Positions 6,186-32,000 of a stretch of DNA of 32,000 bases are shown piece by piece. The stretch comes from Candidatus Saccharimonadota bacterium (lineage in GTDB: Bacteria; Patescibacteriota; Gracilibacteria; UBA4473), in the NCBI GenBank assembly GCA_965228485.1, contig OZ245819.1:300001-332000 (forward strand). Reading direction: 5' to 3'. The notes under the pieces were generated by a model, which was given only the letters and a program-made list of their open reading frames with translations, was not told the DNA's origin and made no database searches. The translations under genes were made by a program, and so were the position numbers. Each line of letters opens with the position of its first letter. Position 1 is the first letter of the stretch.

Positions 6186-6220
6186 AAGAAGTATCCCTGT
6201 CCTGACTTCTTTTTTCTTTT
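6186..6220 (+). terminator. second hairpin plus T-tract whose loop carries a partial copy (ATCCCTGTCC) of the tRNA-Ser 3' half
   Basis: AAGAAGT-atccctgtcctg-ACTTCTT followed by TTTTCTTTT. Nucleotides 6193-6202 are identical to tRNA positions 6028-6037. Confidence 0.4.
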
Positions 6221-6257
6221 GGAAGAACGGGATTCTGAACCAGACTACGCGAAGCGC

Positions 6258-6277
6258 GGGTTCGATACGAAGTCACG
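6258..6277 (+). repeat. 20-nt direct repeat copy A (GGGTTCGATACGAAGTCACG)
   Basis: Matches 6385..6404 at 19 of 20 positions. Lies 26 nt upstream of the duplicated tRNA 3' end. Confidence 0.75.
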
Positions 6278-6302
6278 CTAAAAACTTTTCAAAAATTTAA
6301 GT

Positions 6303-6323
6303 AATCCCTGTCCCTCCGCCATT
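6303..6323 (+). repeat. 21-nt exact duplicate of the tRNA-Ser 3' end (AATCCCTGTCCCTCCGCCATT), att-like
   Basis: Identical to 6027..6047 (3' T-arm strand, acceptor 3' strand, CCA, plus 2 nt). No 5' tRNA half precedes it, so it is not a second tRNA gene. Confidence 0.85.
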
Positions 6324-6384
6324 TTAAGAAATTGGGCTTATGTCCGATTTTTTAAAATATTTGGAAAACATGAGAACCCAATTA

Positions 6385-6404
6385 GGGTTCGATACAAAGT
6401 CACG
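6385..6404 (+). repeat. 20-nt direct repeat copy B (GGGTTCGATACAAAGTCACG)
   Basis: Matches 6258..6277 at 19 of 20 positions. Lies 61 nt downstream of the duplicated tRNA 3' end. Confidence 0.75.
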
Positions 6405-6454
6405 AAAGTTAAAACTCCAAATTAGAATTGAAGAATCCCATCCTCTCTACCAGC

Positions 6455-6493
6455 AAAAAAGCGCTCAGAGTTATAACTCCAAACGCTTTTTTA
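6455..6493 (-). terminator. bidirectional hairpin terminator downstream of csp
   Basis: AAAAAGCG...GAGTTA/TAACTC...CGCTTTTT with an A-run on one side and a T-run on the other. It begins about 20 nt past the csp stop. Confidence 0.55.
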
Positions 6494-6513
6494 TTTCTTT
6501 GATGTTTAATGTT

Positions 6514-6705
6514 TTACACTAAATCAACATTGTCTGCCTTTGGACCTTTTTCAGATGTTCCCATTTCAAAAGTGACAACATCACCTTCATTGAGATCATC
6601 AAACGCGATGTTAAGGTCGTTAGCATGAAAGAATAGATCTTTTGCGCCTCCTTCAGGAGCAATAAATCCAAACCCATTAAGCTTCTTTTTAACAGTACCT
6701 TGCAT
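6514..6705 (-). CDS. csp: cold-shock domain protein (CspA family)
   Basis: 63 aa. GFGFI (RNP1-like) and FFHANDL (RNP2-like, usually VFVHxS) motifs. Ends [21 protein letters not shown], typical of CSD proteins. Confidence 0.9.
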
Positions 6706-6860
6706 AGAGAGAATGATTAAAAAATATTTTCCACTAGTTAAATGTTCAGGAACATATTTTTACACAACTTCTAAAACGATATACCTATTGGAGATCAGAC
6801 TTTACACATGCCAAAGTAAAAAGCTAGTAATTTGTTTCGTTTTATTGAAAAAATTAAAAA

Positions 6861-7091
6861 CTACCGTTTATTCATACTGTCTAGAAACTTGTTCAGAGCT
6901 TTTTCGGCATGAACAATCATAGACAATGGTTTGTTGATGTAATGGATTGTTAGATCGGTAAGATCGTCAATCTTTTTCATCAATCGTGTTGCGATAATTA
7001 CCGTTCGAGTAATAACGATTGCTAAGATCAGGAATCCTGCCCCGAAGCAGAGCATCATAATTTCTTTGGCGTTTTCTAAAATGTAATCCAT
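6861..7091 (-). CDS. small single-pass membrane protein (DUF948-like architecture), hypothetical
   Basis: 76 aa. One N-terminal hydrophobic helix (MMLCFGAGFLILAIVITRTVIIA) followed by a helical tail. ATG start, TAG stop. Confidence 0.55.
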   Translation of the reverse strand: MDYILENAKEIMMLCFGAGFLILAIVITRTVIIATRLMKKIDDLTDLTIHYINKPLSMIVHAEKALNKFLDSMNKR

Positions 7092-7154
7092 GTTTTTTTA
7101 TTTTATCGCAATTTCAAATTTATTTCTAGGGCTTTTGTCTTAAAAAAGCAAATC

Positions 7155-8573
7155 CTACCCCTGTATTTTTTTCTGTAGAACCTGCATTACCATTGGAGGG
7201 TTAGCTGATCCTCGTGATTTTTTCATCACTTGCCCCATCAGGAACTGGATTCCTTTATCTTTTCCATTTTTAATATCCTCAACCACAGATTGATTTTCAG
7301 CCATCACTTCATCCACCCAAGCTTCGATTTCTCCACTGTCAGATTTTTGTTCTAGTCCTAGATTTTCCATAAGTTCTTTGGCTGATTTCCCATTTTCCAT
7401 AGCGGCTTGGATGATTTCTTTGGCCGCACTTGATGAGATTTTTCCATCTTCTTGCAGATTGACTGTATCGGCTAAATGTTCTGGAGTAATTTCTGACTTA
7501 GTCCAATTAGTATCAGCCAAAACAACCGAAAGGAAAAGATTGGCGACCTTTTTCGCTTTCTTATTTAGGGTGATAGCTTTTTCGTAGAAGGTATAAAGTT
7601 CTGGAGCTTCTGTAATTTTTAGGGCTTCGGCTTCAGTCAGACCAAGATCGTCTTGGTATCGGTGAAATTTCGCGAGAGGCAGTTCAGGAAGAGAAGCGTT
7701 GATATCTTCTATTTCTGCCTTAGTAAAGGTTACTGGTGGCAGATCAGGCTCTGGGAAGTATCGGTAATCATGAGCCGACTCTTTATCTCGTAAAAGCTTT
7801 GTTTCTTCTTTATCATCCAGCCATCCAACGGTTGTTTCTTGGGTAGGAATTGATCCTTTTTCCCAGGCTGATTTCTGTTTTCTCAATTCGTATTTCAGCG
7901 CTTTGTAGAGAGAGGTAAAAGAATTTAGATTTTTAATTTCTGTTCGAGGGTAAAGTTTATCTTCCCCTTTTGGTCGAAGCGAGATAGAGGCATCAAATCG
8001 CATCATCCCCTTCTCCATATCAGCATCGGAGGCATCGACCGCTCGTAAGATTTTTTGAATTTCTTGAGCCAAAACTCGAGCTTCTTCAGGGTCTCTAAGG
8101 TCTGGTTCAGTTACAATTTCTACTAATGGTGTTCCGGCTCGATTATAATCACAGAGGGTTCCATTAACTGTATGTGTAAGCTTTCCAGCATCGTTTTCTA
8201 AATGCACTCGAGTAATACCGATCGTCTTTTTCTCCCCTCCTTCAAGCTCAATGTCTACCTGACCATCTAGAGAGATTGGTTGATCGTATTGAGATATTTG
8301 AAATCCGTTTGGAAGGTCTGGGTAAAAATAATTTTTTCGATCAAATTTTGAAAACTCTTGTATTTCGCATCCTAGGGCTGCAGCTCCTCGAACCCCTTTC
8401 TCTAAAGCCGTTTTGTTTAGCACTGGCAACATTCCTGGGAATCCCATACAAACTGGGCAAACCCGGGTATTTGGCTTCGCGCCAAAAGCGTCATTATCAC
8501 AATTACAGAAGAGTTTTGTTTTGGTACTCAGTTGAGCGTGAATTTCGAGACCGATAATTACTTCTAATTCCAT
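7155..8573 (-). CDS. gatB: aspartyl/glutamyl-tRNA(Asn/Gln) amidotransferase subunit B
   Basis: N-terminal sequence is ELEVIIGLEIHAQLSTKTKLFCNC...CPVCMGFPGMLPVLN. Length and C-terminal YqeY-like tail fit GatB. I prefer the ATG at 8573 over the TTG at 8585 used by the ORF track. No gatA or gatC is adjacent. Confidence 0.93.
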   Translation of the reverse strand: MELEVIIGLEIHAQLSTKTKLFCNCDNDAFGAKPNTRVCPVCMGFPGMLPVLNKTALEKGVRGAAALGCEIQEFSKFDRKNYFYPDLPNGFQISQYDQPISLDGQVDIELEGGEKKTIGITRVHLENDAGKLTHTVNGTLCDYNRAGTPLVEIVTEPDLRDPEEARVLAQEIQKILRAVDASDADMEKGMMRFDASISLRPKGEDKLYPRTEIKNLNSFTSLYKALKYELRKQKSAWEKGSIPTQETTVGWLDDKEETKLLRDKESAHDYRYFPEPDLPPVTFTKAEIEDINASLPELPLAKFHRYQDDLGLTEAEALKITEAPELYTFYEKAITLNKKAKKVANLFLSVVLADTNWTKSEITPEHLADTVNLQEDGKISSSAAKEIIQAAMENGKSAKELMENLGLEQKSDSGEIEAWVDEVMAENQSVVEDIKNGKDKGIQFLMGQVMKKSRGSANPPMVMQVLQKKIQG

Positions 8574-8683
8574 ATTTTTTTCCAAATCAGAGTCATTCTA
8601 AGCATTTGTTAAAAACCCTCAAAAAAAATAAGTCTAAAACTGGTAAAAAGATGAATTTTATGATACAATGGAGGGATTTTTTC

Positions 8684-8995
8684 ATGAAAAAAGAAATTCA
8701 ACAACTGATCTTAGAGAGTTTATTCTTGTCAGTCTCTGCCAAGAAGAAGCTTCTCGAAAAACTTGATTCCCTCAGTGATAATCAAGCAAAAGTAATGTTA
8801 TCACTTCTGGAAACAGCTCAAAAACATCAGAATTTTTTGATTGAAAAAGCCACTCAAGACAAACAGTTTCTTGCCAATATCAAACACGATATTCAACAAG
8901 AAAAACGACACGATGACCAGATTCGTGAAGAAATTAACCAAACAAAAGAAGCTCAAGTACTCGAAAAACTTGAAGCTGAAATTGATAAGCTCTAA
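8684..8995 (+). CDS. hypothetical coiled-coil protein (103 aa)
   Basis: ATG at 8684 is preceded by GGAGGG (8670-8675). The longer 8606 start has no such support. K/E/Q-rich heptad-like sequence. The stop lies 5 nt before the 1547-aa gene. Confidence 0.6.
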   Translation: MKKEIQQLILESLFLSVSAKKKLLEKLDSLSDNQAKVMLSLLETAQKHQNFLIEKATQDKQFLANIKHDIQQEKRHDDQIREEINQTKEAQVLEKLEAEIDKL

Positions 8996-9000
8996 CAAAA

Positions 9001-12000
9001 ATGAAAAACTTCTTTCAATCGGCTTACGGCACAGAAAAAGTATCTAGATTTATTTTCTTAGAAGAAACTGGTGGAGAAACTCTCCCAGCAAGTTTTACAG
9101 CGGAAGATGGAAATACTGATGCGGCACGTCAACAGGCGGAATTTAGAGCCATGATGGATAAAATTCCTGAGAAATATCGAGACGTTGCCAGAGATTATTT
9201 AACCAGAACTGCCGAACTACATGATTTTGATAATGAAAGTGGTCTAGATGGACATGAAGCTGGTAACTTCTTAGATGCCATGGAAGGAAGGGCAAATCTT
9301 ATTGCCAGTAGTGAAACGGTTGCGAGAGCTCTGGACAAATTTGGAGATAACATTGAAGATATTCTTCGAGTGATTGTCACTCTAGAGACGGAACAAGTAG
9401 ATAGATTCCTCGATAGTGGTTTAGAGCAAAATTTATCACCAGATAAACTAGTAGCTCGAGCTAGGGCTATTAATATCTTGAATACGAGACTCGAAACTAT
9501 GAAAGCTCAAACCGCTGCTAGAGACTTAGGTAATTATATTGCAGGCAGAAATATTCCCCCTCGGGGAACGCCGGAATATGAAGAAGTAATGAGACAACAT
9601 GCTATCAGACATGGTGTTTTAGAAAGAAACAATGATGAAGACGGCAGTTATCCTGATATGAGTTTAGAAGAGATTGAGCAGGCTCTATTTGAAAAAAGAC
9701 ATGCACACCGTGCTCCAGTCTACCGACATGCCACGGAAACATTAGACCTTATGCTAAATAATAGGACTGATGAAGGGACGGTCCTTAGAGTCGCTCAAGA
9801 ACTTCAGGGAAACGCTGGAGAACCGACCAGAATCGCATTAGATGCCTATGGAGCTAATCCAGCAGACAGAGAAACGGCTGGAGAAAACACTTTATCTGAT
9901 GAACAAATCAGAAATACTGAAACTTTCCTTCAAACAATAGAAGGTTATAAACCCGACCTTTTGGCAGATGCATTAGCCGTTAGAGAGGCTATCAGAGCAA
10001 ATGATCTAAATACTACTAAAACCGCTCTCGAAAAAGTTGTTTCGGAAGCTCTCGATACTGTAAGTGGATGGAATCTTAGTACTGATAAATATATGAATGA
10101 TGATGGAGAATGGATCACCTTTTCTGCGGAAGCGATAATGAACGATCCAAATGCTATGATTCAAGCCCTTAGAGAATTAAATGATACGACCTCTGCCTCT
10201 AGAGAAACCAGCAAAAGAACCCGTGAAGGGTTAAAAACTGCTAGAGAGGCTGGCGGTGAACTTAGCGAAAGAGAAAATAGTATTCTTGACAGTTACAAAG
10301 CAGCGCTTGAGGCTGATGGAGCTTCTAACGAAGCGAGCCAAAAGTTTGATGAAATGGTCCAAATGGTCAAACGAATAGATCCTATCTATGCAGAAAGAAT
10401 GTTGGCCAATAGAGCTACAATGATTGATAATATGGCAAAAGATATGACCTTTATGAAGGTTCTTGATGCTGATATTTCTGCCAACGGTTCTGAAGGACTC
10501 GGAAGTCTTTTAGCTATTTATGATGATATGAAGGGACTTTACGGAACTTTTAATTTCACTGATGAGAATGCAGCCATAGCTCGAGAAGTTATGATTTTTG
10601 CAGCTAGCATGATGATTCCATTTGGGGCTATTATTAATGTAGCTGGAAGAGCTGTTGGAGGAGCCGCACGACTCGCTATACGGGGGGCGACCAGAACTAA
10701 AGTCGTTCAAGGTTCTGGGAGCAGGCTTGCCAGTATGATGCCAACACGTGGAACTGGACTTGTAGATGATGCCGGTCGAGTTGTTGCTAATGGAACGCCT
10801 GGACGAGAAGCTTTGATGGCCGTTCAAAATTCAGTGACTAGAGCTAAAGGAGGTAAAGCCGCCGCTGATGCTATTGCTGCAGGAGAAAAAATTGAAGATG
10901 TTCTCAGAATTGCAGGACAAAGAAATATCACCTTGAAAGGTATCCTAGAAGCTGCCGAAGGAAATGCTGCAGCTCTTACCGCCATTCGTACTAACATGGT
11001 AAAATATGTTGCCGCGGCTGGCGATGATGTGGCCGCTCTTAGACAGTTAGTCGTAACCGCTGGTGATGATGCCGCTGCTATAGGTGTCATTCGAGGTAAT
11101 ATGGCTAAATTTGCAGCAGCGGCTGGTGATGATGTAGCTCAAATTAACCGTCTAATGGTACTTGCTGGTGATGATGCGGCCGCTATTGCTACTTTAAGAA
11201 CACAACTTGGAGAAATAGTCAAAGCTAGCGAAGGTGCTGCTGCACAGCTCATTGCCCAAGGAGCTAAAGTTGATGAAGTTTATTTAGCCGTAATGGCACA
11301 AGGAGGAAAAGTTGATGACGTACTTGCGGCGGTTAAAGCCGCAGGAGCTTCTGTTGATGATGCTGCTGTCGCTATTATTGCCAAAGGTGGGAAGATTGAT
11401 GATGTATTTGTTGCCGTTAAAAATACTGAAGGAAATATTAATGCCCTTGCTGCCCGAATGGTACAGCAAGGTAAAAATGTTGATGAAGTACTCGCTGGAG
11501 TTAAAGCTGCTAGAGCTTCTGTTGATGATGCTGCTGCCGCTATTATTGCCAAGGGTGGGAAGATTGATGATGTATTTGTTGCCGTTAAAAATACTGAAGG
11601 AAATATTAATGCTCTTGCCGCAAGAGTTGCTCAACAAGGAAAAAACATTGATGAAGTACTTGCTGGAGTTAAAGCCGCTAGAGCGTCTGTTGATGATGCT
11701 GCTGCCGCTATTATTGCCAAGGGTGGTAAAGTTGATGAAGTCTTAGCTGCTGCTAAAACTGCTGGCTCTGCCGTTGATGATGTATTGGCTAAAGCTATTA
11801 CTCAAGGAGCTAAAATCGATGACGTACTTGCGGCTGCCAAAACTGTTGGCTCTGCCGCTGATGATGTACTCGCTAAAGCTATTGCAAATGGGGCCAAAGT
11901 TGAAGATGTACTCGCTGCCGCTAAAACCGTTGGAGCCGCTGTTGATGATGTACTCGCTAAAGCTATTGCCCAAGGAACTAAGCTTGAACGAATTATTCAA

Positions 12001-13644
12001 GGAGCCGCTGTAAGTGAAAGACAACTAGCCATTAAGGCCTTAATTGAAAGCAAAGGAAGTCTACAACAAGCTATTAAGAATATGGATAATCCAGCGATTC
12101 TATTTAGATATGCTGACGATGCCGGAGACTTTTCACATGTATTACGACAATTTGCTCTTACCGATGATGCGCTTGCAAAACTACCACAGCAGTTATCTGC
12201 GCTGGGAGAACGAGAAGCTTTTCTGGCAAGAGTTGCAAAAATGCCTCATGGACCACTTCGAACTAGAGTGGATGAAATATTTGGCATGAGAACACTCGCC
12301 AGAGTCGAGTCTAATGCGCTAAAAGCTCGTCTAGGAAATGCTCTTTCTGGTCCGTATGAAAAACTTATGGAAGGAACTTCCGCTATATTACAAGGTTCTT
12401 TAAGACGTAACATTGACGGTGCTTTAACAAAACTCGAAAATCGAAACCTTCCAGGACTAAATCGATTACTTAAAGATTTGAGGTTCCAACTACAAGGACA
12501 AGCCGCAAAAGCGGCTCCTCTATGGGAGGGTTTAATTGCTCGAGTGACCGCCACACTTCCTGCGGATGCAAGAGCTATTGCTCTTAGAGGGGTGCCAGCA
12601 ACACTTGCTGTTGCCGCTGTACACGAAGCTACACCAGCCGTAGCTGATACAGAGAGACGAGATGAAGAAGAGATTATCGCTCCTGTTGAAACTGACAAAG
12701 AAAACGAAAGACCTAAGTTTGATAATGTAGATGCCCTCATTGAAGGTCTAACGCTTGATCACATGGCTCATCCAAAAACTCGAGGAGAAGTACTCGCAAT
12801 TTTGGCTAAATATCAAGCAGAATATAATCAAGGAGACTGGGTAAAAATTGGTCTAGAAATTGCCAAAGTATTTGGTGTCGAAGAAGGATTTGAAACCAGT
12901 AAAGAAGAAATCTACGCTGATGGAAGTAAACTTCGAGCCTTTGGAGCCAAAGTCCAAGAAATCATTAATCATGCTAATGAATTTAAACCTGATATAAATC
13001 GTGATGGTAAAGTAGGACGACAGTCACTTATTGATCTTGAAACGGCTATTCAAGCCCGAGCCGCTGACTTAGCGTTAAGTGGTGAAGGTATTACAGAGGA
13101 AACTGTGGCTGCTCGACGAACAGAACTTGAAGCTATTGCAAAAATAGAAGATCCAAATGAGAGAAATATCAAATTTGCTCAAGCTCTAGGATTCCAAGTA
13201 CCAGAAGGAGAAGCTGGACAAGCCGCTGCTCGCCGAGTGGTTGATCAAATGGCTAGAACCGTTGGATTTGATCCAAGCGAAGGACTCACGCCAGCAACAA
13301 TGGAAAAAGTTCTTGATCATAATTGGAGTCTGACCCCAATAAGAGCACTAACCACTAATGATTTTTCTTCACTATCTGATGCAGAAAACACTCAGATCAA
13401 AGAAGTTCTACAAGGTAATGCTGATCGAGCTGAAAGAACTGGGAAAATTGCTGAGGCCTTTGGATTTAGTCTTTCAAAAGGACCTGATGGTAAATACCAC
13501 TACAATACCGAAGCTAGAAATTTTGTAGAAGACCTACAAAAAGCTCTTGGTTTTGAAGGTGGTGATGTAGATGGTGTTCTTGGACCAAAAACTCTTGGAG
13601 CTCTAAGAGAAAAAGATCTTCGAACGCTGACTATCGGTTCATAA
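9001..13644 (+). CDS. giant (1547 aa) Ala-rich repeat protein with C-terminal peptidoglycan-binding-like motifs
   Basis: Uninterrupted 4.6-kb ORF. One hydrophobic segment (VMIFAASMMIPFGAIINVAG). A nested tandem-repeat core. The C-terminus VEDLQKALGFEGGDVDGVLGPKTLGALRE resembles the PG_binding_1 consensus (LGy..g.vDG.fG..T..Al), with weaker earlier copies (FGVEEG, LGFQVPEG, VGFDPSEG, FGFSLSKG). Confidence 0.85.
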   Translation: MKNFFQSAYGTEKVSRFIFLEETGGETLPASFTAEDGNTDAARQQAEFRAMMDKIPEKYRDVARDYLTRTAELHDFDNESGLDGHEAGNFLDAMEGRANLIASSETVARALDKFGDNIEDILRVIVTLETEQVDRFLDSGLEQNLSPDKLVARARAINILNTRLETMKAQTAARDLGNYIAGRNIPPRGTPEYEEVMRQHAIRHGVLERNNDEDGSYPDMSLEEIEQALFEKRHAHRAPVYRHATETLDLMLNNRTDEGTVLRVAQELQGNAGEPTRIALDAYGANPADRETAGENTLSDEQIRNTETFLQTIEGYKPDLLADALAVREAIRANDLNTTKTALEKVVSEALDTVSGWNLSTDKYMNDDGEWITFSAEAIMNDPNAMIQALRELNDTTSASRETSKRTREGLKTAREAGGELSERENSILDSYKAALEADGASNEASQKFDEMVQMVKRIDPIYAERMLANRATMIDNMAKDMTFMKVLDADISANGSEGLGSLLAIYDDMKGLYGTFNFTDENAAIAREVMIFAASMMIPFGAIINVAGRAVGGAARLAIRGATRTKVVQGSGSRLASMMPTRGTGLVDDAGRVVANGTPGREALMAVQNSVTRAKGGKAAADAIAAGEKIEDVLRIAGQRNITLKGILEAAEGNAAALTAIRTNMVKYVAAAGDDVAALRQLVVTAGDDAAAIGVIRGNMAKFAAAAGDDVAQINRLMVLAGDDAAAIATLRTQLGEIVKASEGAAAQLIAQGAKVDEVYLAVMAQGGKVDDVLAAVKAAGASVDDAAVAIIAKGGKIDDVFVAVKNTEGNINALAARMVQQGKNVDEVLAGVKAARASVDDAAAAIIAKGGKIDDVFVAVKNTEGNINALAARVAQQGKNIDEVLAGVKAARASVDDAAAAIIAKGGKVDEVLAAAKTAGSAVDDVLAKAITQGAKIDDVLAAAKTVGSAADDVLAKAIANGAKVEDVLAAAKTVGAAVDDVLAKAIAQGTKLERIIQGAAVSERQLAIKALIESKGSLQQAIKNMDNPAILFRYADDAGDFSHVLRQFALTDDALAKLPQQLSALGEREAFLARVAKMPHGPLRTRVDEIFGMRTLARVESNALKARLGNALSGPYEKLMEGTSAILQGSLRRNIDGALTKLENRNLPGLNRLLKDLRFQLQGQAAKAAPLWEGLIARVTATLPADARAIALRGVPATLAVAAVHEATPAVADTERRDEEEIIAPVETDKENERPKFDNVDALIEGLTLDHMAHPKTRGEVLAILAKYQAEYNQGDWVKIGLEIAKVFGVEEGFETSKEEIYADGSKLRAFGAKVQEIINHANEFKPDINRDGKVGRQSLIDLETAIQARAADLALSGEGITEETVAARRTELEAIAKIEDPNERNIKFAQALGFQVPEGEAGQAAARRVVDQMARTVGFDPSEGLTPATMEKVLDHNWSLTPIRALTTNDFSSLSDAENTQIKEVLQGNADRAERTGKIAEAFGFSLSKGPDGKYHYNTEARNFVEDLQKALGFEGGDVDGVLGPKTLGALREKDLRTLTIGS
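11017..11990 (+). repeat. nested in-frame tandem repeats with 105-nt (35 aa), 168-nt (56 aa, near-identical) and 84-nt (28 aa) periods
   Basis: AGDDVAxL units at 11017 and 11122. GTTGATGATGCTGCTG(T/C)CGCTATTATTGCC recurs at 11353, 11521 and 11689. Three 84-nt units (VLAAAKTxGxAxDDVLAKAIxxGxKxxD) span about 11740-11990. Confidence 0.9.
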
Positions 13645-18522: not shown

Positions 18523-18750
18523 ATGAAAAACAAAATCCCCTATTTAGCGATTCTTAGTTTTGGAAACTTAGTGTTTTTTGCCTTTTTGCTTTTAACTCTA
18601 TTACTTCAATTTTTGTTCTTTCCAAAAGCCTTCGCTTTTTTGTGGGGAGCTCAGTTAGTGCTTGGAACCATCATGACCTACGCTAACTGGCGTTTTTATA
18701 CAAAGACGAATATTTCATTTGATGACGTTCTTACTGATCTCAAAAAATAA
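18523..18750 (+). CDS. small two-TM membrane protein, hypothetical
   Basis: 75 aa from the ATG at 18523; the track's upstream extension overlaps the fmt 3' end. The stop TAA overlaps the next gene's ATG (TAATG). Confidence 0.55.
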   Translation: MKNKIPYLAILSFGNLVFFAFLLLTLLLQFLFFPKAFAFLWGAQLVLGTIMTYANWRFYTKTNISFDDVLTDLKK

Positions 18751-20792
18751 TGAGTGCAATACTATTCTTGGCTGTCATTGGTTTGGGTATTTGGATATGG
18801 AACCTTTCCTCACGAATAGAGGTTCTAGAAAGAAAATTGGATGGTAATAATAAGTCCATAAAAATTGACTTTACCACCAAAAATCAGACTTCTAAAACCG
18901 TTGAAAAAAGACTTCCTTGGGAACCGGCCGGTAAAACACCCTCTGTTGCTAAAAAAACCACCGAACCAGTTAGACCTAAAAAAGAGTTCCGCCTGGAAGA
19001 ATTTATTGGTCAAAAGCTTTTCCCAATTTTAGGAGCGACGTCAATTGTTCTTGCTGTTGGATTTTTTACTCTTTGGGCTTTCGCTAACGGCTGGGTTGGA
19101 CCAATGGGAAGGATTGCTTTGGGCGTCATGTTCTCTCTTGTGCTTATTGTCCTCGGAGAATTCATAAGAAAAAAATATCCTCATTTTTTCCAATATTTCA
19201 CAGCTGCTGGAGTCGCAGGGCTTATCATTACCACCTTCATGGCACGATACCACTACGAGTTTTTAAGCTCCTTAGAGAGCCTTATACTTTATACCGTTGA
19301 AGCCGCTGCAGGAGTAATGTTAAGTCTGAGATACAACTCCCGTATTCTTGGAAACTTTTCAATATTGGGGGCTCTTATTGCCCCTTTCCTAATTGATGCT
19401 TCAGATCCAAATATCTTTGGATTACTTGGTTTTGTTTGCATTATCACCCTCGCGGGATTTATTCTTGCCTCACAGAAAAAATGGCCTGAAATTTATACTT
19501 TTTTGCTTATTTTTTCGACGATTTTTGAGCTCATGTCTATTGATGAGTTTAAATCAAATCCGAGCGTTATTAGTCCTATTATATTGCTTGGATTCATCTT
19601 CTTGCTCCACACGCTCATTGGAGCGGGCGGTTTAATGAGACTCTGGAAAGAAAACATTGCACAGTCCCATCTAAAACCAAAAGAACAGGATATTTATGAA
19701 GTAATACTTTTTTCTCTTTCATTACTTGTAGCAAATCTACTGGCTTTCAATATATTTAATCATCTTGATTGGAATCACTTTGGATTTGTTGTCGGGTTTG
19801 AAGCGTTAGTACTTTATGGATTAGCCGAATGGTTTCGAGGAAAACGTTGGCAACTCTTCCATATGGTCACTCTGTCCAGTAGCTTGGTATTTTTACTCTT
19901 TGCTACTATTTGGGAACTTCAATCGGAAGACATTATAATTCTTACGCTCACTCTTATTGGAGAAGGCGCTCTTCTCTGTTTTGCTGGACAGGCTTCCCAA
20001 CAAAAAGTATTCGATATTTTTGGAAAAATTGCACTTTCAATTGCCTTCCTTCTTATATTCGAAATTGAAGATGCTACGCTGAGTTTACTCTCAATTTTAT
20101 CTCTTATTGCAGCTCTTGTTTTCTCTGTTGGCAAACCTAAAACCGAACTTGAAAAAGTCTGGCTTGGCGTGAGTTTACTCTTCAGTTCCATAATGATATT
20201 TTTCTGGTCAATTGAACAGAGCTCTTTACCTACCACCCTTACACCTGCTCCAGTAGTAATTTGGTCTTTGGTACTTCTCGCTGCTGGTATAATAAAACAA
20301 AACACCATTGTAAGAGTCGCGAGTACTATCGTCTTTGTTCTTATGGCGGTGATTTCTATGGAAGAAATGCGATATGGGGAATATATTATTAATGCCTCTT
20401 TATTTGCTTGGATTTTCTTAAATGGAGCGGCTATTTATTATACTCAAAAAACTGATCAACGAGACACACTTCTCGACCAATTTATAAATTATGGAGCCCT
20501 TATCATCTTAACATTAGGATGTTTCTTCTTTGCGGGAGAAACTTACACCGAACCCTACCTCACCATCACCTGGCTTGTTTGGGCTTCCCTACTCCTCACC
20601 GTTGGAGTGGTTCAAAAATGGGTAGATATAAGATATGTCGCACTCGGAATATTCTTACTAATTATTGCTAAATTATATTTTGTAGATGTTTGGCAGTGGG
20701 AAGTTTGGGGTCGTTTTCTGGCTTTCTTTGCTCTTGGGGTTTCTTTGCTTGGCGTTGGTTTCTTTTATCAAAAAATATGGACAAAAAAATAA
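18750..20792 (+). CDS. polytopic membrane protein, DUF2339-like
   Basis: 680 aa. An N-terminal TM helix is followed by a short coiled segment (RIEVLERKLD) and a Lys/Pro-rich linker, then more than 15 hydrophobic helices. This is the DUF2339 architecture as I recall it; not verified by search. Confidence 0.8.
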   Translation: MSAILFLAVIGLGIWIWNLSSRIEVLERKLDGNNKSIKIDFTTKNQTSKTVEKRLPWEPAGKTPSVAKKTTEPVRPKKEFRLEEFIGQKLFPILGATSIVLAVGFFTLWAFANGWVGPMGRIALGVMFSLVLIVLGEFIRKKYPHFFQYFTAAGVAGLIITTFMARYHYEFLSSLESLILYTVEAAAGVMLSLRYNSRILGNFSILGALIAPFLIDASDPNIFGLLGFVCIITLAGFILASQKKWPEIYTFLLIFSTIFELMSIDEFKSNPSVISPIILLGFIFLLHTLIGAGGLMRLWKENIAQSHLKPKEQDIYEVILFSLSLLVANLLAFNIFNHLDWNHFGFVVGFEALVLYGLAEWFRGKRWQLFHMVTLSSSLVFLLFATIWELQSEDIIILTLTLIGEGALLCFAGQASQQKVFDIFGKIALSIAFLLIFEIEDATLSLLSILSLIAALVFSVGKPKTELEKVWLGVSLLFSSIMIFFWSIEQSSLPTTLTPAPVVIWSLVLLAAGIIKQNTIVRVASTIVFVLMAVISMEEMRYGEYIINASLFAWIFLNGAAIYYTQKTDQRDTLLDQFINYGALIILTLGCFFFAGETYTEPYLTITWLVWASLLLTVGVVQKWVDIRYVALGIFLLIIAKLYFVDVWQWEVWGRFLAFFALGVSLLGVGFFYQKIWTKK

Positions 20793-21958
20793 CATTACTG
20801 GCTTTTGGCTTTCTTTCTTTTTTTAGTGTTATTGGGGTCTCTCATGCACGTATGGCGGATATTTCCCCGAGTACAGATCGATTTGAACAGAAGATTGATT
20901 TTACTGTGGAAGGTATCACGACTCCAAAGGTTGTCACTTTTGAGACCAGTCAAAGACTTGGAAATTTCCAGGCTCTGCAAAATAGTGATAATGGTGAATT
21001 TATTCATTTTGAAGCTTCTACACAATTCAGTGAAGCTGATTGGGGAATGTATTTAGAATCTATAAGTGAGACAATAGATGGAAGATCAAGCTACCTTCAG
21101 GATCAGAAGACAAATACCAGTGTAACTTTTGACTCTAACAACCAGAATCACATTGTTACTTTTGATAATACTGAAGCTCGATATTTGATTTCTGAAATAG
21201 ATATCACTCTTAGTTCAAATACAATTCCACCAGATTATGTTTCTATTAGAGCCATGCTTCCTGGTAGTAGTGAATGGAAGACTATTATCGATCAAAAACG
21301 ATTTTCGTCCCGAATAACTTTTCCAAAAATTCAACCACAAAAAATTGAAGTTATCTTGGAGAGCAACAACCTTCTTAGAGTTTCAGAAATTGATTTTTCT
21401 AATGACGTTAGACAGAAGTCTCGCAAAGAACGAATTCATTTTTATGCTTCTGAGGGACAAAATTACACTCTATTTACCCAGCCTAGTTTTGGACAGGAAA
21501 GAATCAGTGGGATTAGTACACAAGGTTTAAGAACTGATAATAACACTCCCGTTTTTGATCTTCCTCAGGCACAAAAAAATGAAGGTTATAATCCAGATTT
21601 TGATCTTGATGGAATTAATGACCTTCAAGACTTATGTCCAAAAGTAGCCGATGAAACTAATGCTGATATTGATGGCAATCAACGAGGGGATGTTTGTGAA
21701 GATCCAGATCAAGATTACTATTTCTCACATAAAGACAATTGTCCATTTGTTTATAACCCTGATCAAAAAGACTCTGATGCTGATGGGTTGGGAGATAAAT
21801 GTGATGAAAGCGATGATCGAACAACAGAAAAAGATGATCTGCTGATTACTATCAGTTTCATTGTTATGGTTTTGGCTCTTATATTTCTGATCACTAAGAG
21901 TGCCCTAAATATGAAAAAAGAATCTCAAAATACAAGTAACGAAGATGATGAAGAATAG
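20777..21958 (+). CDS. secreted, C-terminally membrane-anchored protein with thrombospondin type 3 (Ca-binding) repeats
   Basis: Start MDKKITLLAFGFLSFFSVIGVSHA is a signal peptide and overlaps the upstream gene by 16 nt. TSP3 motifs lie at about 21590-21817 (NPDFDLDGINDLQDLCP; DNCPFVYNPDQKDSDADGLGDKCD). C-terminal TM segment LLITISFIVMVLALIFLI. Confidence 0.8.
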   Translation: MDKKITLLAFGFLSFFSVIGVSHARMADISPSTDRFEQKIDFTVEGITTPKVVTFETSQRLGNFQALQNSDNGEFIHFEASTQFSEADWGMYLESISETIDGRSSYLQDQKTNTSVTFDSNNQNHIVTFDNTEARYLISEIDITLSSNTIPPDYVSIRAMLPGSSEWKTIIDQKRFSSRITFPKIQPQKIEVILESNNLLRVSEIDFSNDVRQKSRKERIHFYASEGQNYTLFTQPSFGQERISGISTQGLRTDNNTPVFDLPQAQKNEGYNPDFDLDGINDLQDLCPKVADETNADIDGNQRGDVCEDPDQDYYFSHKDNCPFVYNPDQKDSDADGLGDKCDESDDRTTEKDDLLITISFIVMVLALIFLITKSALNMKKESQNTSNEDDEE

Positions 21959-26229: not shown

Positions 26230-27357
26230 CTATTTTCCTTTAACTTTCAAAATCAACTCAATCGCATCACCTCTTGTAATGAGGTAATCCATTTCTGAGT
26301 TCGTAATATAACTCGGTGGTTCTTCTAGTTTGAGTAATTCTTGCCGATATCCTTCGTACCAAATCTCCGTCTCAGAAATATCTGTTCCCTCTATTTCTAA
26401 TACCATTTTGCTCGCCTCTGCGGCGTTAATCGTTTGAGCTGGTTTCATCGTTCCATCTGGATATCCAGACATCACGCCAAGCTCTACGGCTTTTGCTAAA
26501 AAAACTCTGTACCAAGCATTTTTCTCTAAGTCTGGGAATTTAACAATGTGAGACTCCTCAGGGTTTGCCGATTTATCAAAAGCGAGCGTCAACATCTTGG
26601 CAAACTCCGCTCGATTCACCGTGTTTTCTAATTTAATTGTTCCATCTGGATATCCAGATATCCAGCCCTCTTCTACAGCTTGGAGGACTGATTCGTAAAG
26701 GGGATGGTCTAAGGCGAGGTCGGTAAAGAGCAGCTTCTCTTTTAAAGGAATCTCTCGAGGATTTGAAAAATCAATATTGTCTGTTATCAAAATGTTTCCA
26801 AATGATTGATAAGAAACTTCATTATCAGAAATCCACTTAAAATCAGAAAAAGAATCTACACTAGGCGAAAAATCTAAACAACTATACTTTTCTAAAAAAA
26901 TTAACTCATCTTGTTTGCTAAGAGATTCTCTAATTTCTTCAATATCAAAAATACAATACCCCGTGTTGTTAACTCCATCTTTCCAAACTTTAATGGCTAG
27001 TTTTTCTCCTGAGGGAGAAATTATTCTCTCAAAAAATAAAAGATTTTCTGTTTTATAATCTTCCTTAACTAAATTCCTAAAACGATATTTTTTACCTGTA
27101 GACAAATCGAACACTCTAATTGGTAAAGCTATATCCTCACTAAAACCGTGAATAAGAAGGTTTTCTAAAATGATTGGCTTGTTTTGCTTCTCTTCCCACT
27201 CCACTCTATCTATTCCATTCTCTAAGTACAAAAAACTAAGTTTACTATCATAAAAAACTTTCCAACTATTATACTCTCCTACAACTGTAGAAGAAGCACG
27301 TACTCCATAACTAAAAAACAAAACTCCACAAAAACCGAAAATAAATAATTTCTTCAT
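26230..27357 (-). CDS. secreted protein with two C-terminal SLH (S-layer homology) domains, copy 2
   Basis: Signal peptide MKKLFIFGFCGVLFFSYGVRA. SLH motifs FTDL..HPLY...GWISGYPDGT...VNRAEFAKML and FPDL..NAWY...GVMSGYPDGT...INAAEASKMV. The C-terminal ~160 aa is about 90% identical to that of 28332..29402. Confidence 0.85.
   Translation of the reverse strand: MKKLFIFGFCGVLFFSYGVRASSTVVGEYNSWKVFYDSKLSFLYLENGIDRVEWEEKQNKPIILENLLIHGFSEDIALPIRVFDLSTGKKYRFRNLVKEDYKTENLLFFERIISPSGEKLAIKVWKDGVNNTGYCIFDIEEIRESLSKQDELIFLEKYSCLDFSPSVDSFSDFKWISDNEVSYQSFGNILITDNIDFSNPREIPLKEKLLFTDLALDHPLYESVLQAVEEGWISGYPDGTIKLENTVNRAEFAKMLTLAFDKSANPEESHIVKFPDLEKNAWYRVFLAKAVELGVMSGYPDGTMKPAQTINAAEASKMVLEIEGTDISETEIWYEGYRQELLKLEEPPSYITNSEMDYLITRGDAIELILKVKGK
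26239..26720. repeat. ~480-bp duplicated segment (SLH-anchor coding region), copy 2
   Basis: Hand alignment to 28345..28825 at an offset of about 2105 nt gives roughly 85-90% nucleotide identity by eye. Confidence 0.8.
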
Positions 27358-27740
27358 TCTAATCTAGCCTTAATAATATCTAAAAAATAATCAATATCAA
27401 ACACAGGACCAACATCATATTTCCCAGTAACATTATGATGAGCAAGAATTCCGTTAAACTTGTCTACTTCCTCATTATAAAAGATTCTATCACTATCTTT
27501 TTCTGGGTAATGATACCAACTGTATTTACTAACTTCTTCTTTAGAAAGCTTGTCATAATTATGGGGATTCTCATATTCAAAAAATTCGATTGGAATACCA
27601 TAACGTTCTTCTATATTTAACAAAAGCTTTGCTAAACTCCCTAACTGATCATCTGTATAGTTTTGCCAATACTCATGTCTAATATTATCAACACCAGAAT
27701 CTCTTGTCGGAGCAGGTGTGGCACAGCCCACCTGGTCCAC
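27354..27740 (-). pseudogene. C-terminal fragment of an amidase_2-type N-acetylmuramoyl-L-alanine amidase (5'-truncated paralog of 29404..>32000)
   Basis: YTDDQLGSLAKLLLNIEERYGIPIEFF...GILAHHNVTGKYDVGPVF aligns with YSDLQYQELDRLLVYIEESVGIPYEFF...GVVSHQNVTGKWDTGPAF. The N-terminal half of the domain, including the first Zn-ligand His (LHGTAG region), is missing. The only start is a GTG. This is the only TGA stop in the window. Confidence 0.65.
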
Positions 27741-27770
27741 AACGTTTCCAATAAATTTATATATAATATT

Positions 27771-28265
27771 TTATAAAGACTCTATTACAATTGGTGTTCT
27801 AGGATTAGCCGAAGAATGCACCCAATGTTCCGGCGACAATACATAATTTTTTCGTACTGGGTTCTCTTCAATATAATTTTTCTTTTGGATAAAAAACTTT
27901 TCACTTTCTATAAGCTGAGGCATGTTAGTTTTTTGCCAAATACTAAATCTATCATCCCTCATAAACAAATCCGCCACTCGTGGTTCGGTTTTCTTTATAT
28001 TTTTAAACAACTCTAAGGCTGTATATTTCTTAAAATCTCTCAAAAAACCTGAAACATCAGAACTCTGAACCAATAAGTGAATATGATTTAACATAAAAAC
28101 ATAAGCATAGACTCTGAGTTCTTTATGTTCTTGGCAGTGAATCAGAGAATCAGACAAAATATCCCAACGATCATATCTATCAAAAACATAGTACCAACGA
28201 TTTACTGTACAGGTTATAAAGTAAATTTCATCGTTCAGTTCTTCATTTATACGAAGTGAAGGCAT
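27771..28265 (-). CDS. HUH-Y1 transposase, IS200/IS605 TnpA or REP-associated tyrosine transposase (RAYT)-like
   Basis: 164 aa. HUH motif NHIHLLV. C-terminal SIWQK...YIEENPVRKNYV...PEHWVHSS matches the RAYT/Y1_Tnp pattern (WQ, YIxxNPV, W.wSS). Confidence 0.8.
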   Translation of the reverse strand: MPSLRINEELNDEIYFITCTVNRWYYVFDRYDRWDILSDSLIHCQEHKELRVYAYVFMLNHIHLLVQSSDVSGFLRDFKKYTALELFKNIKKTEPRVADLFMRDDRFSIWQKTNMPQLIESEKFFIQKKNYIEENPVRKNYVLSPEHWVHSSANPRTPIVIESL

Positions 28266-28287
28266 TTTTATATTAAATAAACATCAT

Positions 28288-28317
28288 GGAGCCAGTGCTC
28301 TACGAGACACTCGCTCC
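28288..28317. other. imperfect 10-bp-stem hairpin between the SLH gene stop and the transposase start
   Basis: GGAGCCAGTG-ctctacgaga-CACTCGCTCC with one C/C mismatch. It could be the terminator of 28332..29402 or a transposase-recognised subterminal/REP-like hairpin. Confidence 0.4.
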
Positions 28318-28331
28318 GACATTTTTTAGCT

Positions 28332-29402
28332 TTACTTATGACGATCCTTTACCTTTAGGATCAAATCAATCGCATCCCCTCTGGTAATGAGGTAATCCAT
28401 TTCCCCGTTTGTGATATAACTCGGTGGTTCTTCTAGTTTAAGTAGCTCCTGCCGATAGCCTTCGTACCAAACTTCCGTCTCAGAAATGTCTGTTCCCGCT
28501 ATTTCTAATACCATTTTGCTTGCCTCTGCGGCATTAATGGTTTGCGCTGGTTTCATCGTTCCGTCTGGATACCCAGACATCACACCAAGCTCTACGGCTT
28601 TTGCTAAAAAAACTCTGTACCAAGCATTTTTTTCTAGATCAGGAAACTTCGTAATCAGACCTTCATCAGGGTTTTCTGATTTTCCAAAAGCAAGCGTCAA
28701 CATCTTGGCAAACTCGGCTCGATTCACTGTATTTTCTAATTTAATTGTTCCATCTGGATATCCAGATATCCAGCCTTCCTCTACTGCTTGGAGGACTTTT
28801 TTGTAGAGAGGATGATTTAGAGAAAGATCTATGAAAGGAGAAATAATATTATTCAATTTCTCCACATTCTTTCTGGCTAGAGGATAGTTTTGAATTAGTT
28901 CATCTCTCCTTTCTAGCAATAAACCTGATCCAACCACCTTAATAACACTTAAGTCTGAACCACTTTCACTAGTTTCAAAAATTGTATAATTCTTATTTTT
29001 ATCAAATCCAGAAATAGCCTTAAAAGTAAAATCTGTACCATTAAAATCTGGATCAAAAAAAGATACTGGTGGGTAAACATAACCGAAAAATAGATCACTA
29101 ACGCACCACATTTTCTTATCAACATCCAAACACAGATCACTATTTGCCGCCTCATCACCAATTTCAAATATTTTTATATCTTCAATTTCATAAAAAGCAT
29201 TGAGCCAATATTTATCAAAATCCAGTTCAGCCCCTCCTCCATAATCCACCCAACGTCCTATCTGGATTGGGTCTGTTAAGCTGCGAGCCTGCTTCAAAAA
29301 ATCTTGATCATAAAAATATCTCGGATTACGAATTTCTATTTGAGCCTGTGCCACAGAAGTAAAAAAAACTTGTAACAGTAAAAGAGAAATTATTTTTTTC
29401 AT
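28332..29402 (-). CDS. secreted protein with two C-terminal SLH domains, copy 1
   Basis: Signal peptide MKKIISLLLLQVFFTSVAQA. It has the same two SLH domains as copy 2, but the N-terminal ~190 aa is unrelated. Confidence 0.85.
   Translation of the reverse strand: MKKIISLLLLQVFFTSVAQAQIEIRNPRYFYDQDFLKQARSLTDPIQIGRWVDYGGGAELDFDKYWLNAFYEIEDIKIFEIGDEAANSDLCLDVDKKMWCVSDLFFGYVYPPVSFFDPDFNGTDFTFKAISGFDKNKNYTIFETSESGSDLSVIKVVGSGLLLERRDELIQNYPLARKNVEKLNNIISPFIDLSLNHPLYKKVLQAVEEGWISGYPDGTIKLENTVNRAEFAKMLTLAFGKSENPDEGLITKFPDLEKNAWYRVFLAKAVELGVMSGYPDGTMKPAQTINAAEASKMVLEIAGTDISETEVWYEGYRQELLKLEEPPSYITNGEMDYLITRGDAIDLILKVKDRHK
28345..28825. repeat. ~480-bp duplicated segment (SLH-anchor coding region), copy 1
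   Basis: Partner of 26239..26720. Confidence 0.8.
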
Positions 29403-29403
29403 T

Positions 29404-32000
29404 TTATTGTGATTTATGTTTTAAATTAAAATGTTCTTGATTAAATGCTGGTCCAGTATCCCACTTACCTGTCACATTCTGGTGAGAAACCACACCTTTA
29501 AATTTATTTAAAGCTTCATAATAGTCTAACACAATTTGTCTTACCTCTTCATCTTCAGACGGAGTGCCTCTTGCCTCTTTAGGAAAATAACTAAGTTTGT
29601 TCGACTTATAATTGTCGTCATTAAAGAACTCGTAAGGAATTCCAACAGACTCCTCTATGTAAACTAACAGCCGATCTAGTTCTTGATATTGCAAATCAGA
29701 GTATGGCTCCCATCTTTTTATATTCTCAGAATCCCCTCCCCACTTCCAACTATTAGTCCAAGCTTTCCAGTTAAGTGGAAAAGACTTCTTTGCCAATGGG
29801 AATCTGTCCCTATTTTTCACACTTGGATTTGCCCCTGTATTAATAAGTTCTATGCCAAGCGTATTGATGTTATGCCACCCCTCAACCTGAGTATGATAAT
29901 TACTCCCATAACCAACATGTGATAATTGAACCCACGGAGCTCTTAATTGAACAATCTCGCCCAATTGATCTACAAAAAAATGGGCAGTAATACAGTCTTT
30001 TTTAATACTTAAACTTGTTTTTATATTATCAGCCACTGAACTTGCTGACCCTGTTCCAGCAGTTCCATGAAGAACAACATGCTGTAATTTTTTACCTTTA
30101 GGGCGAGCCCAATTACAATAGTTGGGAGCATATTTCGCAAACTCAACCCATTCTGGCCGGATCACCGTCGCGATTACCCACCCCTCAATTTCCCCAGAAC
30201 GAACTTTGTACCAACGACTCGTTTTATATTTATCAATATATTTAACTCCATCTTCAGCTTTTCCTAAAACTACTAACTCACTATTAACTTCTGGAATAGT
30301 TACTAATATTTTAGAATTCTGACTCTTGGCTTCGTAAATCTTCACCCCTTTGATACTCGTTTTAAATTTTCTCTCTTCGATTTCTTTAGGCTCAGATATT
30401 AACGGAATTTTCGCCCCTTCAACAAAGACATCATTTCTCAATACTCTAAGCCCAACATTGTTATCTTTAAGCGTCTCATAATCACCTTTAAATAGAACTT
30501 TATAAACTTTAAAGCTATCAACTAAAACTTCTGATTCAAAAGGTTCAATTACCCACTCATCTTCCTCTATTAAAATATCTGAAATTAATTTCCACCTCCA
30601 ATCAGAATACAATATATCCCATTTTCTTTTTCCAGTGTTTTTAAGTTCTACAAACCACTTGCAATGCAATTCACTACAATCTACTTCTGAAACTTTGTAA
30701 TCATAACTGTAATCTCCTGCTTCGGATTCTAAATCTATTAACCATGAAACAACTTTTTGAATAAGTACTTTCCCTTGTTTGTTTTTAATAACAAAGCTTC
30801 TTTCTGACGACTCATTGTAATCAAATAAACTTGTTTTTAAATATGGAGAAATATCTGATTTTATAGTCTCCTCCCAAATACCACTCCCTTTTGTCCATTG
30901 GTACTTGGCAATAGCACTTTTAGAAGTTATATCTTCTGAATCTGGATGAGAAAAATTAAGATTTAAATTTTCTCCCTTCTTAGGGTAATCTTCTGTTTGA
31001 TCTTCAAAGATAATAAATGAATATTCCCAAATTCTTCTTTCTCCGTCATTTTCTTTGAGGGTAAATTCTATTTGGTTTTCGCAGCTATCAACGGCCTCTA
31101 TTTCTACCACTTCACTCAAATCTGAGGATTTATTGTTTGAGCCAACTGATATCCCCCCTAAATGAGTATAGGCTTCATTGAGTGAGCCTACTTTGTAAGA
31201 AACAAACCCATTTCCTTGATCTTGATAGTTATCAAGCGTAAGTGAGGTTTTTTGAGATGAAATATCTTCTCGAGATTGGCCAACGTAAACTTTTACTTGC
31301 TCTGCTTTATAGGGTTTATAAAAATTTAGATAAAGACTTTCTTCACACTGTAGGGCTCGAATTTGAGAAATTTTTTCTGGAGGTTTACTTCCACCACCAG
31401 ATACAACGGCTTCACTGAGTGTTTCTGGCATAATTTCTGACCCTAATACTCCCATTACGGCATGATCGTTTTCTGCTTCAATCCAGTAGGAAAAATCTCC
31501 ATCAGGAAAGGTCGTTCGATCAATCGTAATATTGAATTCATCAGGATTTATTGTTGGAACAAGGTTTGTCTGGCAGGTTCCAGTATTACAGGTATAGAAA
31601 ATCTCTGCCCGATTCAACTCTTGAGTACTAACAATAGTAACCGTTATTGTCGGGTCACCGCCATTTGCCCAATCGGTTGAATCTGTTACCAACGTAATAA
31701 CGGGCGCATCTAATTCGTGACCTGTTGGTGAATTTATAAATTGAACCGTACTAAAACTGGAATAAGAATCATCAACAAACTTTGTCCGATATCTCCAATA
31801 CCAATCCTGGCTCACCTTACTGTCAATATTATAAAAGTTATCCGTCAGAACAATCGCCGGATCCCAGGAGTTATACAGTGAAGCAAATTCTAATTCATAC
31901 TCAACCGCTCCTGGATCATCTACCCAGCGAACAAATGTATCATTAGGCGTATAAGTAGGACCTGTATTTAGAAAATCTTTAAGAACATTAATATTCGCGC
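29404..32000 (-). CDS. large multidomain cell-wall hydrolase: Ig/FN3-like repeats, SH3b, and a C-terminal amidase_2 (N-acetylmuramoyl-L-alanine amidase); N-terminus off the right edge
   Basis: I translated 31816..31998 by hand and the frame stays open to the window end, so the track's GTG at 31815 is not the true start. SH3b-like segment GVKYIDKYKTSRWYKVRSGEIEGWV at about 30150-30360. Amidase motifs VVLHGTAGTG, AHFFVDQLGEIVQL, NINTLGIELIN and SHQNVTGKWDTGP. Confidence 0.85.
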   Translation of the reverse strand, partial: ANINVLKDFLNTGPTYTPNDTFVRWVDDPGAVEYELEFASLYNSWDPAIVLTDNFYNIDSKVSQDWYWRYRTKFVDDSYSSFSTVQFINSPTGHELDAPVITLVTDSTDWANGGDPTITVTIVSTQELNRAEIFYTCNTGTCQTNLVPTINPDEFNITIDRTTFPDGDFSYWIEAENDHAVMGVLGSEIMPETLSEAVVSGGGSKPPEKISQIRALQCEESLYLNFYKPYKAEQVKVYVGQSREDISSQKTSLTLDNYQDQGNGFVSYKVGSLNEAYTHLGGISVGSNNKSSDLSEVVEIEAVDSCENQIEFTLKENDGERRIWEYSFIIFEDQTEDYPKKGENLNLNFSHPDSEDITSKSAIAKYQWTKGSGIWEETIKSDISPYLKTSLFDYNESSERSFVIKNKQGKVLIQKVVSWLIDLESEAGDYSYDYKVSEVDCSELHCKWFVELKNTGKRKWDILYSDWRWKLISDILIEEDEWVIEPFESEVLVDSFKVYKVLFKGDYETLKDNNVGLRVLRNDVFVEGAKIPLISEPKEIEERKFKTSIKGVKIYEAKSQNSKILVTIPEVNSELVVLGKAEDGVKYIDKYKTSRWYKVRSGEIEGWVIATVIRPEWVEFAKYAPNYCNWARPKGKKLQHVVLHGTAGTGSASSVADNIKTSLSIKKDCITAHFFVDQLGEIVQLRAPWVQLSHVGYGSNYHTQVEGWHNINTLGIELINTGANPSVKNRDRFPLAKKSFPLNWKAWTNSWKWGGDSENIKRWEPYSDLQYQELDRLLVYIEESVGIPYEFFNDDNYKSNKLSYFPKEARGTPSEDEEVRQIVLDYYEALNKFKGVVSHQNVTGKWDTGPAFNQEHFNLKHKSQ

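Follow-up and report, generated by a model that had tools for sequence, protein, structure and literature searches.

How can two neighbouring cell-surface proteins have nearly the same wall anchor but unrelated N-terminal halves, and why does each of them follow a gene or gene fragment for a peptidoglycan amidase? This question is raised by a 32,000-nucleotide stretch from a Candidatus Saccharimonadota bacterium (assembly GCA_965228485.1, contig OZ245819.1, positions 300,001 to 332,000), which we call the window and to which all coordinates refer unless another locus is named. At its right end, five genes lie on the minus strand: a giant amidase (amidase 1), an SLH (surface-layer homology) protein (SLH1), a transposase, the remnant of a second amidase, and a second SLH protein (SLH2). 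The list of open reading frames (ORFs) confirmed the order and the places that a first-pass annotation had given for these genes. Direct reading also bore out the tight junctions described there, since the SLH1 start codon lies 1 nt past the stop of amidase 1 (TAAaATG), while the stop of the remnant overlaps the start of SLH2 (ATGA). Our analysis points to two old modules, each composed of a secreted amidase and a wall-anchored partner protein, whose anchors, but not their heads, were homogenised by gene conversion.

SLH1 (28332-29402) and SLH2 (26230-27357) are both recognised by the Pfam SLH profile (55.9 and 62.2 bits, respectively, cut-off 20.8), with two repeats passing in each C-terminal anchor (28332..28835 and 26230..26727). 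A degenerate third repeat (WYEGYR...ITRGDAIELILKV) falls below the Pfam threshold and was identified by eye and through its conservation within the family; the tail of the anchor ends with ITRGDAIELI. In BLASTP, 148 of 165 C-terminal residues are identical (90%, E 1e-106). The corresponding DNA differs at 76 of 495 nt (84.6% identity), and 52 of these 76 differences are at third codon positions. Both values agree well with the hand alignment of the first-pass annotation, which had given about 91% over the last ~158 residues and 85-90% over ~480 bp. The similarity starts abruptly at F(T/I)DL and runs to the stop codon. Upstream of it, BLASTP found no similarity between the two heads and profile-profile comparison aligned their signal peptides only, as expected from the earlier statement that the N-terminal domains are unrelated.

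Sequence homology connects the anchor to an SLH domain of known structure, that of Bacillus anthracis Sap (3PYW, E 6.5e-9). Pyruvylated secondary cell-wall polymer is the ligand of SLH trimers (PMC6030368, PMC10435577), and by homology the triple-SLH module of SLH1 and SLH2 presumably binds the secondary cell-wall polymer of the producer itself. A search of a species-level genome collection placed the anchor closest to proteins of Candidatus Peregrinibacteria, Peribacteria and Gracilibacteria. Dozens of contigs from these three groups (loci L004-L083) encode SLH proteins, and a paper from 2026 describes 8-10 SLH proteins in an epibiotic Gracilibacterium (PMC13059738). The many SLH loci in Peregrinibacteria and Gracilibacteria are at odds with a survey of 15 candidate-phyla genomes, in which SLH and CsaB were reported to be lost from the group (bioRxiv 10.1101/2021.05.31.446380). 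A scan of metagenomes with the anchor gave no further modules; most of the proteins returned were distant SLH proteins of the Firmicutes type.

The history of the two anchors can be followed by comparison with a relative that is represented by two independent assemblies from different samples (loci L001 and L002). In L001, the gene for a 1203-aa amidase is followed by P0004, which carries head 1, and then by P0121, which carries head 2, so that these are the orthologues of SLH1 and SLH2 in the same order. Head 1 shares 55-57% identity with the head of P0004, and head 2 shares 30-33% with P0121 over the head alone or 46% in the best whole-protein local alignment. The anchors do not follow this relationship. 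They share 90.3% amino acid identity in the window and 95.2% in L001, but only 68-72% between the genomes, and identity at third codon positions amounts to 68.5% (window) and 82.5% (L001) within the genomes compared to 41-44% between them. Likewise, the synonymous divergence (dS) of the anchors is 0.78 in the window and 0.33 in L001, while it is saturated between the genomes. In four-taxon bootstraps the heads grouped by head type in 1000/1000 replicates and the anchors grouped by genome, also in 1000/1000.

Since the paralogous anchors are more alike than the orthologous ones, including at synonymous sites and in two genomes, they have been homogenised by interlocus gene conversion, which was confined to the SLH module and took place in each of the two lineages independently. 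Synonymous sites that are shared within genomes cannot be the result of selection on the protein alone. The last homogenisation in the window must be old in view of the dS of 0.78, and the ratio of nonsynonymous to synonymous divergence (dN/dS) of 0.075 for the same pair indicates that both anchors are under strong purifying selection. The comparison further shows that both partner genes predate the split from the L001 lineage and that the heads were inherited vertically and were not swapped. From the "homogenised anchor with swapped heads" of the first-pass annotation, the homogenisation is thus retained, while the swapping has to be given up because each head has its orthologue in L001. Concerted evolution of paralogues by interlocus gene conversion is well known in general (PMC2720389, PMC3966226). 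The present case resembles it in the greater likeness of paralogues than of orthologues, synonymous sites included, and in a sharp tract boundary at the limit of homology. What sets it apart is that the tract covers a single domain of two proteins whose remaining parts are unrelated, and that this is seen in two genomes in parallel.

We consider it highly improbable that the likeness of the anchors arose without conversion, be it by an independent recent gain or duplication of the domain, by convergent selection for the wall polymer of each lineage, or by misassembly. Some convergence at the protein level is expected, as both anchors must bind one polymer, and the anchor pair of the window is not very recent (dS 0.78). 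However, selection on the protein cannot yield third positions that are common within but not between genomes, and both genomes contain both genes in the same order with orthologous heads. Misassembly, which the first-pass annotation had named as a possible source of the similarity, is excluded because the copies differ at 15% of their bases and the two-gene layout recurs in both assemblies of the relative. An exchange of one anchor for the other via homologous recombination would be gene conversion under another name. The same tendency is seen in two further pairs: the anchors of P0014 and P0018, encoded on one contig, are 67% identical compared to at most 48% with any other anchor, and those of P0007 and P0008 from one assembly are 78% identical compared to at most 61% with others. 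As these pairs come without orthologue pairs, they suggest but do not prove conversion.

Recombinational surface-variation cassettes, as in Campylobacter fetus sap, were rejected as a model for the locus. Only two copies of the anchor were found from the genome of the window, both recorded on one contig of 1.295 Mb. Each copy has its own coupled start, the heads have stable orthologues in L001, and no recombinase other than the transposase of the array was seen. Together with the old date of the last homogenisation, this also argues against the active shuffling that was implied by the earlier term "diversifying cassette".

The second part of the question concerns the amidases. Among the close family members with readable context (n = 14), an Amidase_2 gene or its relic lies directly upstream of 11, namely SLH1, SLH2, P0004, P0121, P0005-P0010 and P0014, with relics only in the case of SLH2 and P0121. 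The spacing ranges from an overlap of 8 nt to a gap of 30 nt. Upstream amidases were found for only 2 of 38 generic SLH genes of these phyla, and these two belong to L001 and L003. In agreement with this, the hidden Markov model of the family amidase matches only these loci among 168. P0018 is preceded by a gene for an M23 peptidase and itself precedes an amidase; P0015 has an amidase 300 nt downstream, and the neighbour of P0013 is a partial ORF without match. Because the loci have no other neighbours in common, we regard the pairing as a conserved module and not as leftover synteny. The coupling of a murein hydrolase with an SLH protein, deduced by the first-pass annotation from the window alone, thus recurs in related genomes, with eight further Amidase_2-paired members (P0004-P0010 and P0014).

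It could be argued that the two genes are mere neighbours, the SLH proteins being ordinary surface or S-layer-associated proteins, for example for the binding of substrate or host, which share an operon with amidases through envelope biogenesis. Such a view would be compatible with the persistence of SLH2 and P0121 under selection without an amidase, with the diversity of the heads, one of which is like a generic propeller piece (see below), and with the large number of SLH proteins in these phyla (PMC13059738). It does not readily account for direct adjacency in 11 of 14 cases, often with overlapping codons and across divergent loci, when other SLH genes show it in 2 of 38. Nor does it account for the same rule with another hydrolase class, as in the M23 gene before P0018. 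We therefore judge a fortuitous neighbourhood to be quite unlikely.

Two related genomes contain more than one such module. At L086 a four-gene array (1-9257 and 10655-11587) comprises two hydrolase-partner modules in the order of a giant protein with M23 and SLH, a partner with DKNYY and SLH, a protein with SLH and Amidase_2, and an SLH partner with a propeller-type head; a gene of the MliC lysozyme-inhibitor family is located nearby on the opposite strand. L003 and L169 (GCA_054001735.1) belong to one genome with two amidase-partner modules on different contigs, whose partners are P0007 and P0008. P0008 is followed by an SH3-containing gene.

Amidase 1 is represented in the window by its 864 C-terminal codons (29404..32000). 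The ORF list lets it start at a GTG at 31815 (29404-31815), but the frame runs without stop up to the window edge. Its sole significant Pfam domain is the Amidase_2 catalytic domain (29632..30093, residues 636-789 of 864; PF01510, 43.5 bits, cut-off 26), so that the Ig/FN3-like and SH3b domains of the first-pass annotation find no support in Pfam. Its orthologue, the amidase of L001, is 45% identical over 897 aa, and since this alignment starts at residue 315 of the L001 protein, about 314 N-terminal residues of amidase 1 are predicted to lie beyond the window edge. The N-terminus of the L001 amidase looks by eye like a Sec signal peptide, and the profile of the amidase family matches the structures of AmpDh2, AmpD and XlyA (E 1.7e-11) and also AmiD. 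On this basis the enzymes are classified as secreted N-acetylmuramoyl-L-alanine amidases of the AmpD/XlyA type. A metagenome scan with the amidase alignment gave no matches.

The second amidase survives only as a relic of 128 codons (27354..27740), in which residues 16-122 are derived from an amidase. It has no Pfam match and no complete catalytic domain, the N-terminal part of which is gone. Over residues 16-119 it shares only 38% identity with the ~110 residues at the end of amidase 1, so the cassette, which the first-pass annotation had called duplicated, is no recent duplicate. Identity is higher to the amidases of L085 and L086 (50-52%) than to those of the amidase 1 type (33-38%), which places the relic in an old paralogous module. 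Moreover, the two SLH genes of L001 are separated by a gap of 121 nt, in which 25 codons of the same amidase survive as a relic. Because of this relic at the same place and the closer relationship to L085 and L086, we conclude from the comparison that the ancestor had two old and already divergent amidase-partner modules in tandem, the second amidase having decayed in both lineages. The SLH2 gene stayed intact in spite of the destruction of its amidase. A block of 63 nt at the end of the relic in the window (27383..27445) is conserved in the non-coding gap of L001 (5671-5733) with 92-93% DNA identity, compared to 69-72% for all other conserved segments between the genomes, whose synonymous sites are saturated. 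All four core differences are synonymous in the old amidase frame, which has no start codon in L001. The block may serve the SLH2-type gene as promoter or leader, or it may indicate that the enzyme was lost very recently; the promoter reading obtained no statistical support.

A mobile element sits exactly at the breakpoint of amidase 2. The transposase noticed in the first-pass annotation can be specified as a REP (repetitive extragenic palindrome)-associated tyrosine transposase (RAYT) of 164 aa (27771..28265), with matches to NCBIfam NF047646 (81.6 bits, cut-off 80) and Pfam Y1_Tnp (26.9 bits) and with the HUH motif NHIHLL in its translation. It is flanked by REP-like hairpins on the 5' side (28288..28320, DNA fold z -4.3) and on the 3' side (27706..27738, z -3.1). 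A 14-nt core, GTCGGAGCGAGTGT, is located at 28307-28320 on the minus strand and has its inverted partner at 27706-27719 on the plus strand; the core is present only at these two places in the 32-kb window, with 0.19 expected by chance. The first ~13 codons of the amidase relic fall into the hairpin, and its nominal GTG start lies inside the 3'-side copy. The arrangement is like that of a RAYT with flanking REPs in having a single HUH tyrosine-transposase gene between two inverted hairpin-forming repeats, and unlike known RAYT/REP systems in having, as seen in the window, two flanking copies only.

In an all-against-all comparison the heads on the common anchor fell into at least seven unrelated types. 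Head 2, which follows the signal peptide of SLH2 (together 26728..27357), belongs to a family of eight (SLH2, P0121, P0005-P0008, P0011 and P0014). Its AlphaFold (AF2) model is all-beta with 16 strands (pLDDT 66.6, pTM 0.64), and the best Foldseek matches in the PDB are the propellers of prolyl-oligopeptidase-type enzymes, TolB and WD40 proteins (TMq 0.5-0.59, best E 6.5e-4). Judged from this model, head 2 is an all-beta piece resembling part of a beta-propeller. Head 1 (28836..29402, including the signal peptide of SLH1) is an orphan domain that is predicted to be beta-rich. An exhaustive profile search of 1.84 billion representatives returned its own cluster only, and its AF2 model (pLDDT 43) is too poor for fold comparison. 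The structure comparison suggested in the first-pass annotation was thus informative for head 2 but not for head 1. Pfam searches with the heads at permissive thresholds returned nothing reliable.

How can these observations be combined? We favour, as the somewhat more probable explanation, that the array derives from two tandem, anciently diverged modules in which the partner is a wall-anchored cognate modulator or docking protein of its hydrolase. Each module consists of a secreted peptidoglycan amidase and a translationally coupled partner, in which a signal peptide is followed by a variable, beta-rich head and the triple-SLH anchor forms the C-terminus. The head of the partner would recognise the cognate hydrolase and hold or control it on the wall of the producer, either as a restraining, self-protecting factor or as a docking and activating factor. 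The anchors could be homogenised freely, since both must fit the same polymer, while the heads could not, as they would serve different enzymes. In module 2 the amidase has been lost, with the RAYT at the breakpoint, and the partner SLH2 kept. A restraining or immunity-like role has in its favour the gene order, the diversity of the heads, the retention of an orphan partner, and the faster divergence of the orphaned head. The latter amounts to about twofold, with a dN of 0.75 for orphaned head 2 compared to 0.35 for still-paired head 1.

Several observations weigh against a cognate modulator. In Pfam, profile or Foldseek searches neither head was matched to a family of known inhibitors, immunity proteins or activators. 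The head 2 family accompanies rather diverse amidases, so that a co-variation of head and enzyme is only loosely shown. SLH2 and P0121 persist without an enzyme and may therefore have an independent function. The amidases of L085, L086 and L088 bear SLH repeats of their own, which makes a pure tethering role needless for them. Finally, PS_pyruv_trans (csaB) was not found among the scanned proteins of the 32-kb window.

In a second explanation the enzymes would be weapons. Here the amidases and M23 peptidases would act on the wall of a host or neighbour, the partner would be an immunity-like inhibitor on the own wall, and SLH2 would be an orphan immunity gene. The order of an enzyme gene followed by a tightly coupled partner gene, with overlapping or nearly touching stop and start codons, was found here and is characteristic of toxin-immunity pairs. 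The diversity of the heads, with at least seven unrelated types on one anchor, the retention of the partner after enzyme loss in two lineages, and the very large size of the related secreted enzymes (1203-3569 aa) would also fit. Related Gracilibacteria have been described as epibionts, with a suspected role of their SLH proteins in contact with the host (PMC13059738), and Bacillus subtilis delivers LytC together with its enhancer LytB onto recipient cells (PMC7176660). On the other side, Pfam scans identified no delivery system or toxin-delivery domain, amidases with their own SLH repeats look as if meant for the wall of the producer, and no head matches a known immunity fold. We consider this explanation rather unlikely. 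Its most elaborate form would be a family of hydrolases with wall-anchored cognate guards, in which the enzymes are weapons directed at the walls of other cells, the heads enzyme-specific inhibitors, the anchors matched by conversion, and orphan guards kept against the enzymes of relatives; we regard this form as doubtful. That the array serves attack on, or attachment to, another cell is speculation.

We therefore return to the wall-anchored modulator or docking protein and compare it with known systems. B. anthracis Sap, EA1 and BSL proteins and Paenibacillus alvei SpaA likewise combine tandem SLH repeats with different functional domains on one type of anchor. Unlike in these, the present anchor is C-terminal, the hydrolase is a separate polypeptide in the window, and the lineage belongs to the candidate phyla. 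In Clostridium thermocellum, the SLH-anchored scaffoldins SdbA, OlpB and Orf2p dock enzymes by cohesin-dockerin pairs. The partners described here are similar in their C-terminal triple-SLH module with a putative protein-binding head, in tandem genes with a common anchor, and in the idea of a wall-bound adaptor. They are dissimilar in that Pfam scans detected no cohesin or dockerin and that the binding is deduced. Polymorphic toxin systems hold effector/immunity pairs with peptidoglycan amidases, such as Tae/Tai, including orphan immunity genes. Common to both are a small partner gene tightly coupled to the enzyme gene before it, the diversity of partners, and a partner that outlives its enzyme; in contrast to Tae/Tai, neither a secretion apparatus nor a delivery domain was found, SLH repeats anchor the partner to the wall, and there is no likeness to known immunity families.

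For B. subtilis lytABC, the differences are that LytC is an Amidase_3 instead of an Amidase_2 enzyme, that the wall-binding repeats are of another kind, and that the partner gene comes first. LytB has a SpoIID-like domain, and none was found in the present proteins. Nevertheless, as in our module, the amidase gene adjoins that of a secreted partner on the same wall, LytB modulates LytC (PMC7176660), and in some related loci enzyme and partner carry the same type of anchor, as in lytABC. By analogy, LytC with its enhancer LytB is the closest documented functional precedent for the putative modulation in the present module.

SLH anchoring, modular heads, an autolysin with a partner, gene conversion and RAYT are thus known ingredients, while their use in a conserved amidase-partner module, with homogenisation limited to the anchor domain, is a new variation. 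Full-text searches turned up no publication connecting Peregrinibacteria to SLH proteins or to an amidase module. Candidate-phyla bacteria have tiny genomes and many are attached to other cells; little is known about the ways in which they reshape their own wall or breach that of a host. A giant hydrolase with a wall-anchored partner and interchangeable heads offers a concrete and testable handle on these processes. The locus is also a clean natural case of domain-restricted conversion, in which the part with a shared ligand is homogenised and the parts with different partners diverge. Should the partners turn out to inhibit or dock their specific enzymes, a new class of regulators would be added to those of autolysins.

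As no terminator-like site was found within the array on the minus strand, the five genes may share one transcript. The neighbours in the window are housekeeping genes (gatB, pgk, NAD kinase and a formyltransferase), so that we take the window as chromosomal DNA of a small candidate-phyla genome; a prophage origin was rejected for the same reason. Two giant ORFs of 1425 and 1547 aa (1504-5781 and 9001-13644, plus strand) have no Pfam match. Together with a thrombospondin-type-3-repeat protein (20690-21958) and a DUF2339 membrane protein (18750-20792), they are probably surface proteins typical of candidate-phyla genomes. A single tRNA gene (5956-6042, plus strand) is located in an ORF-poor stretch between 5781 and 7155.

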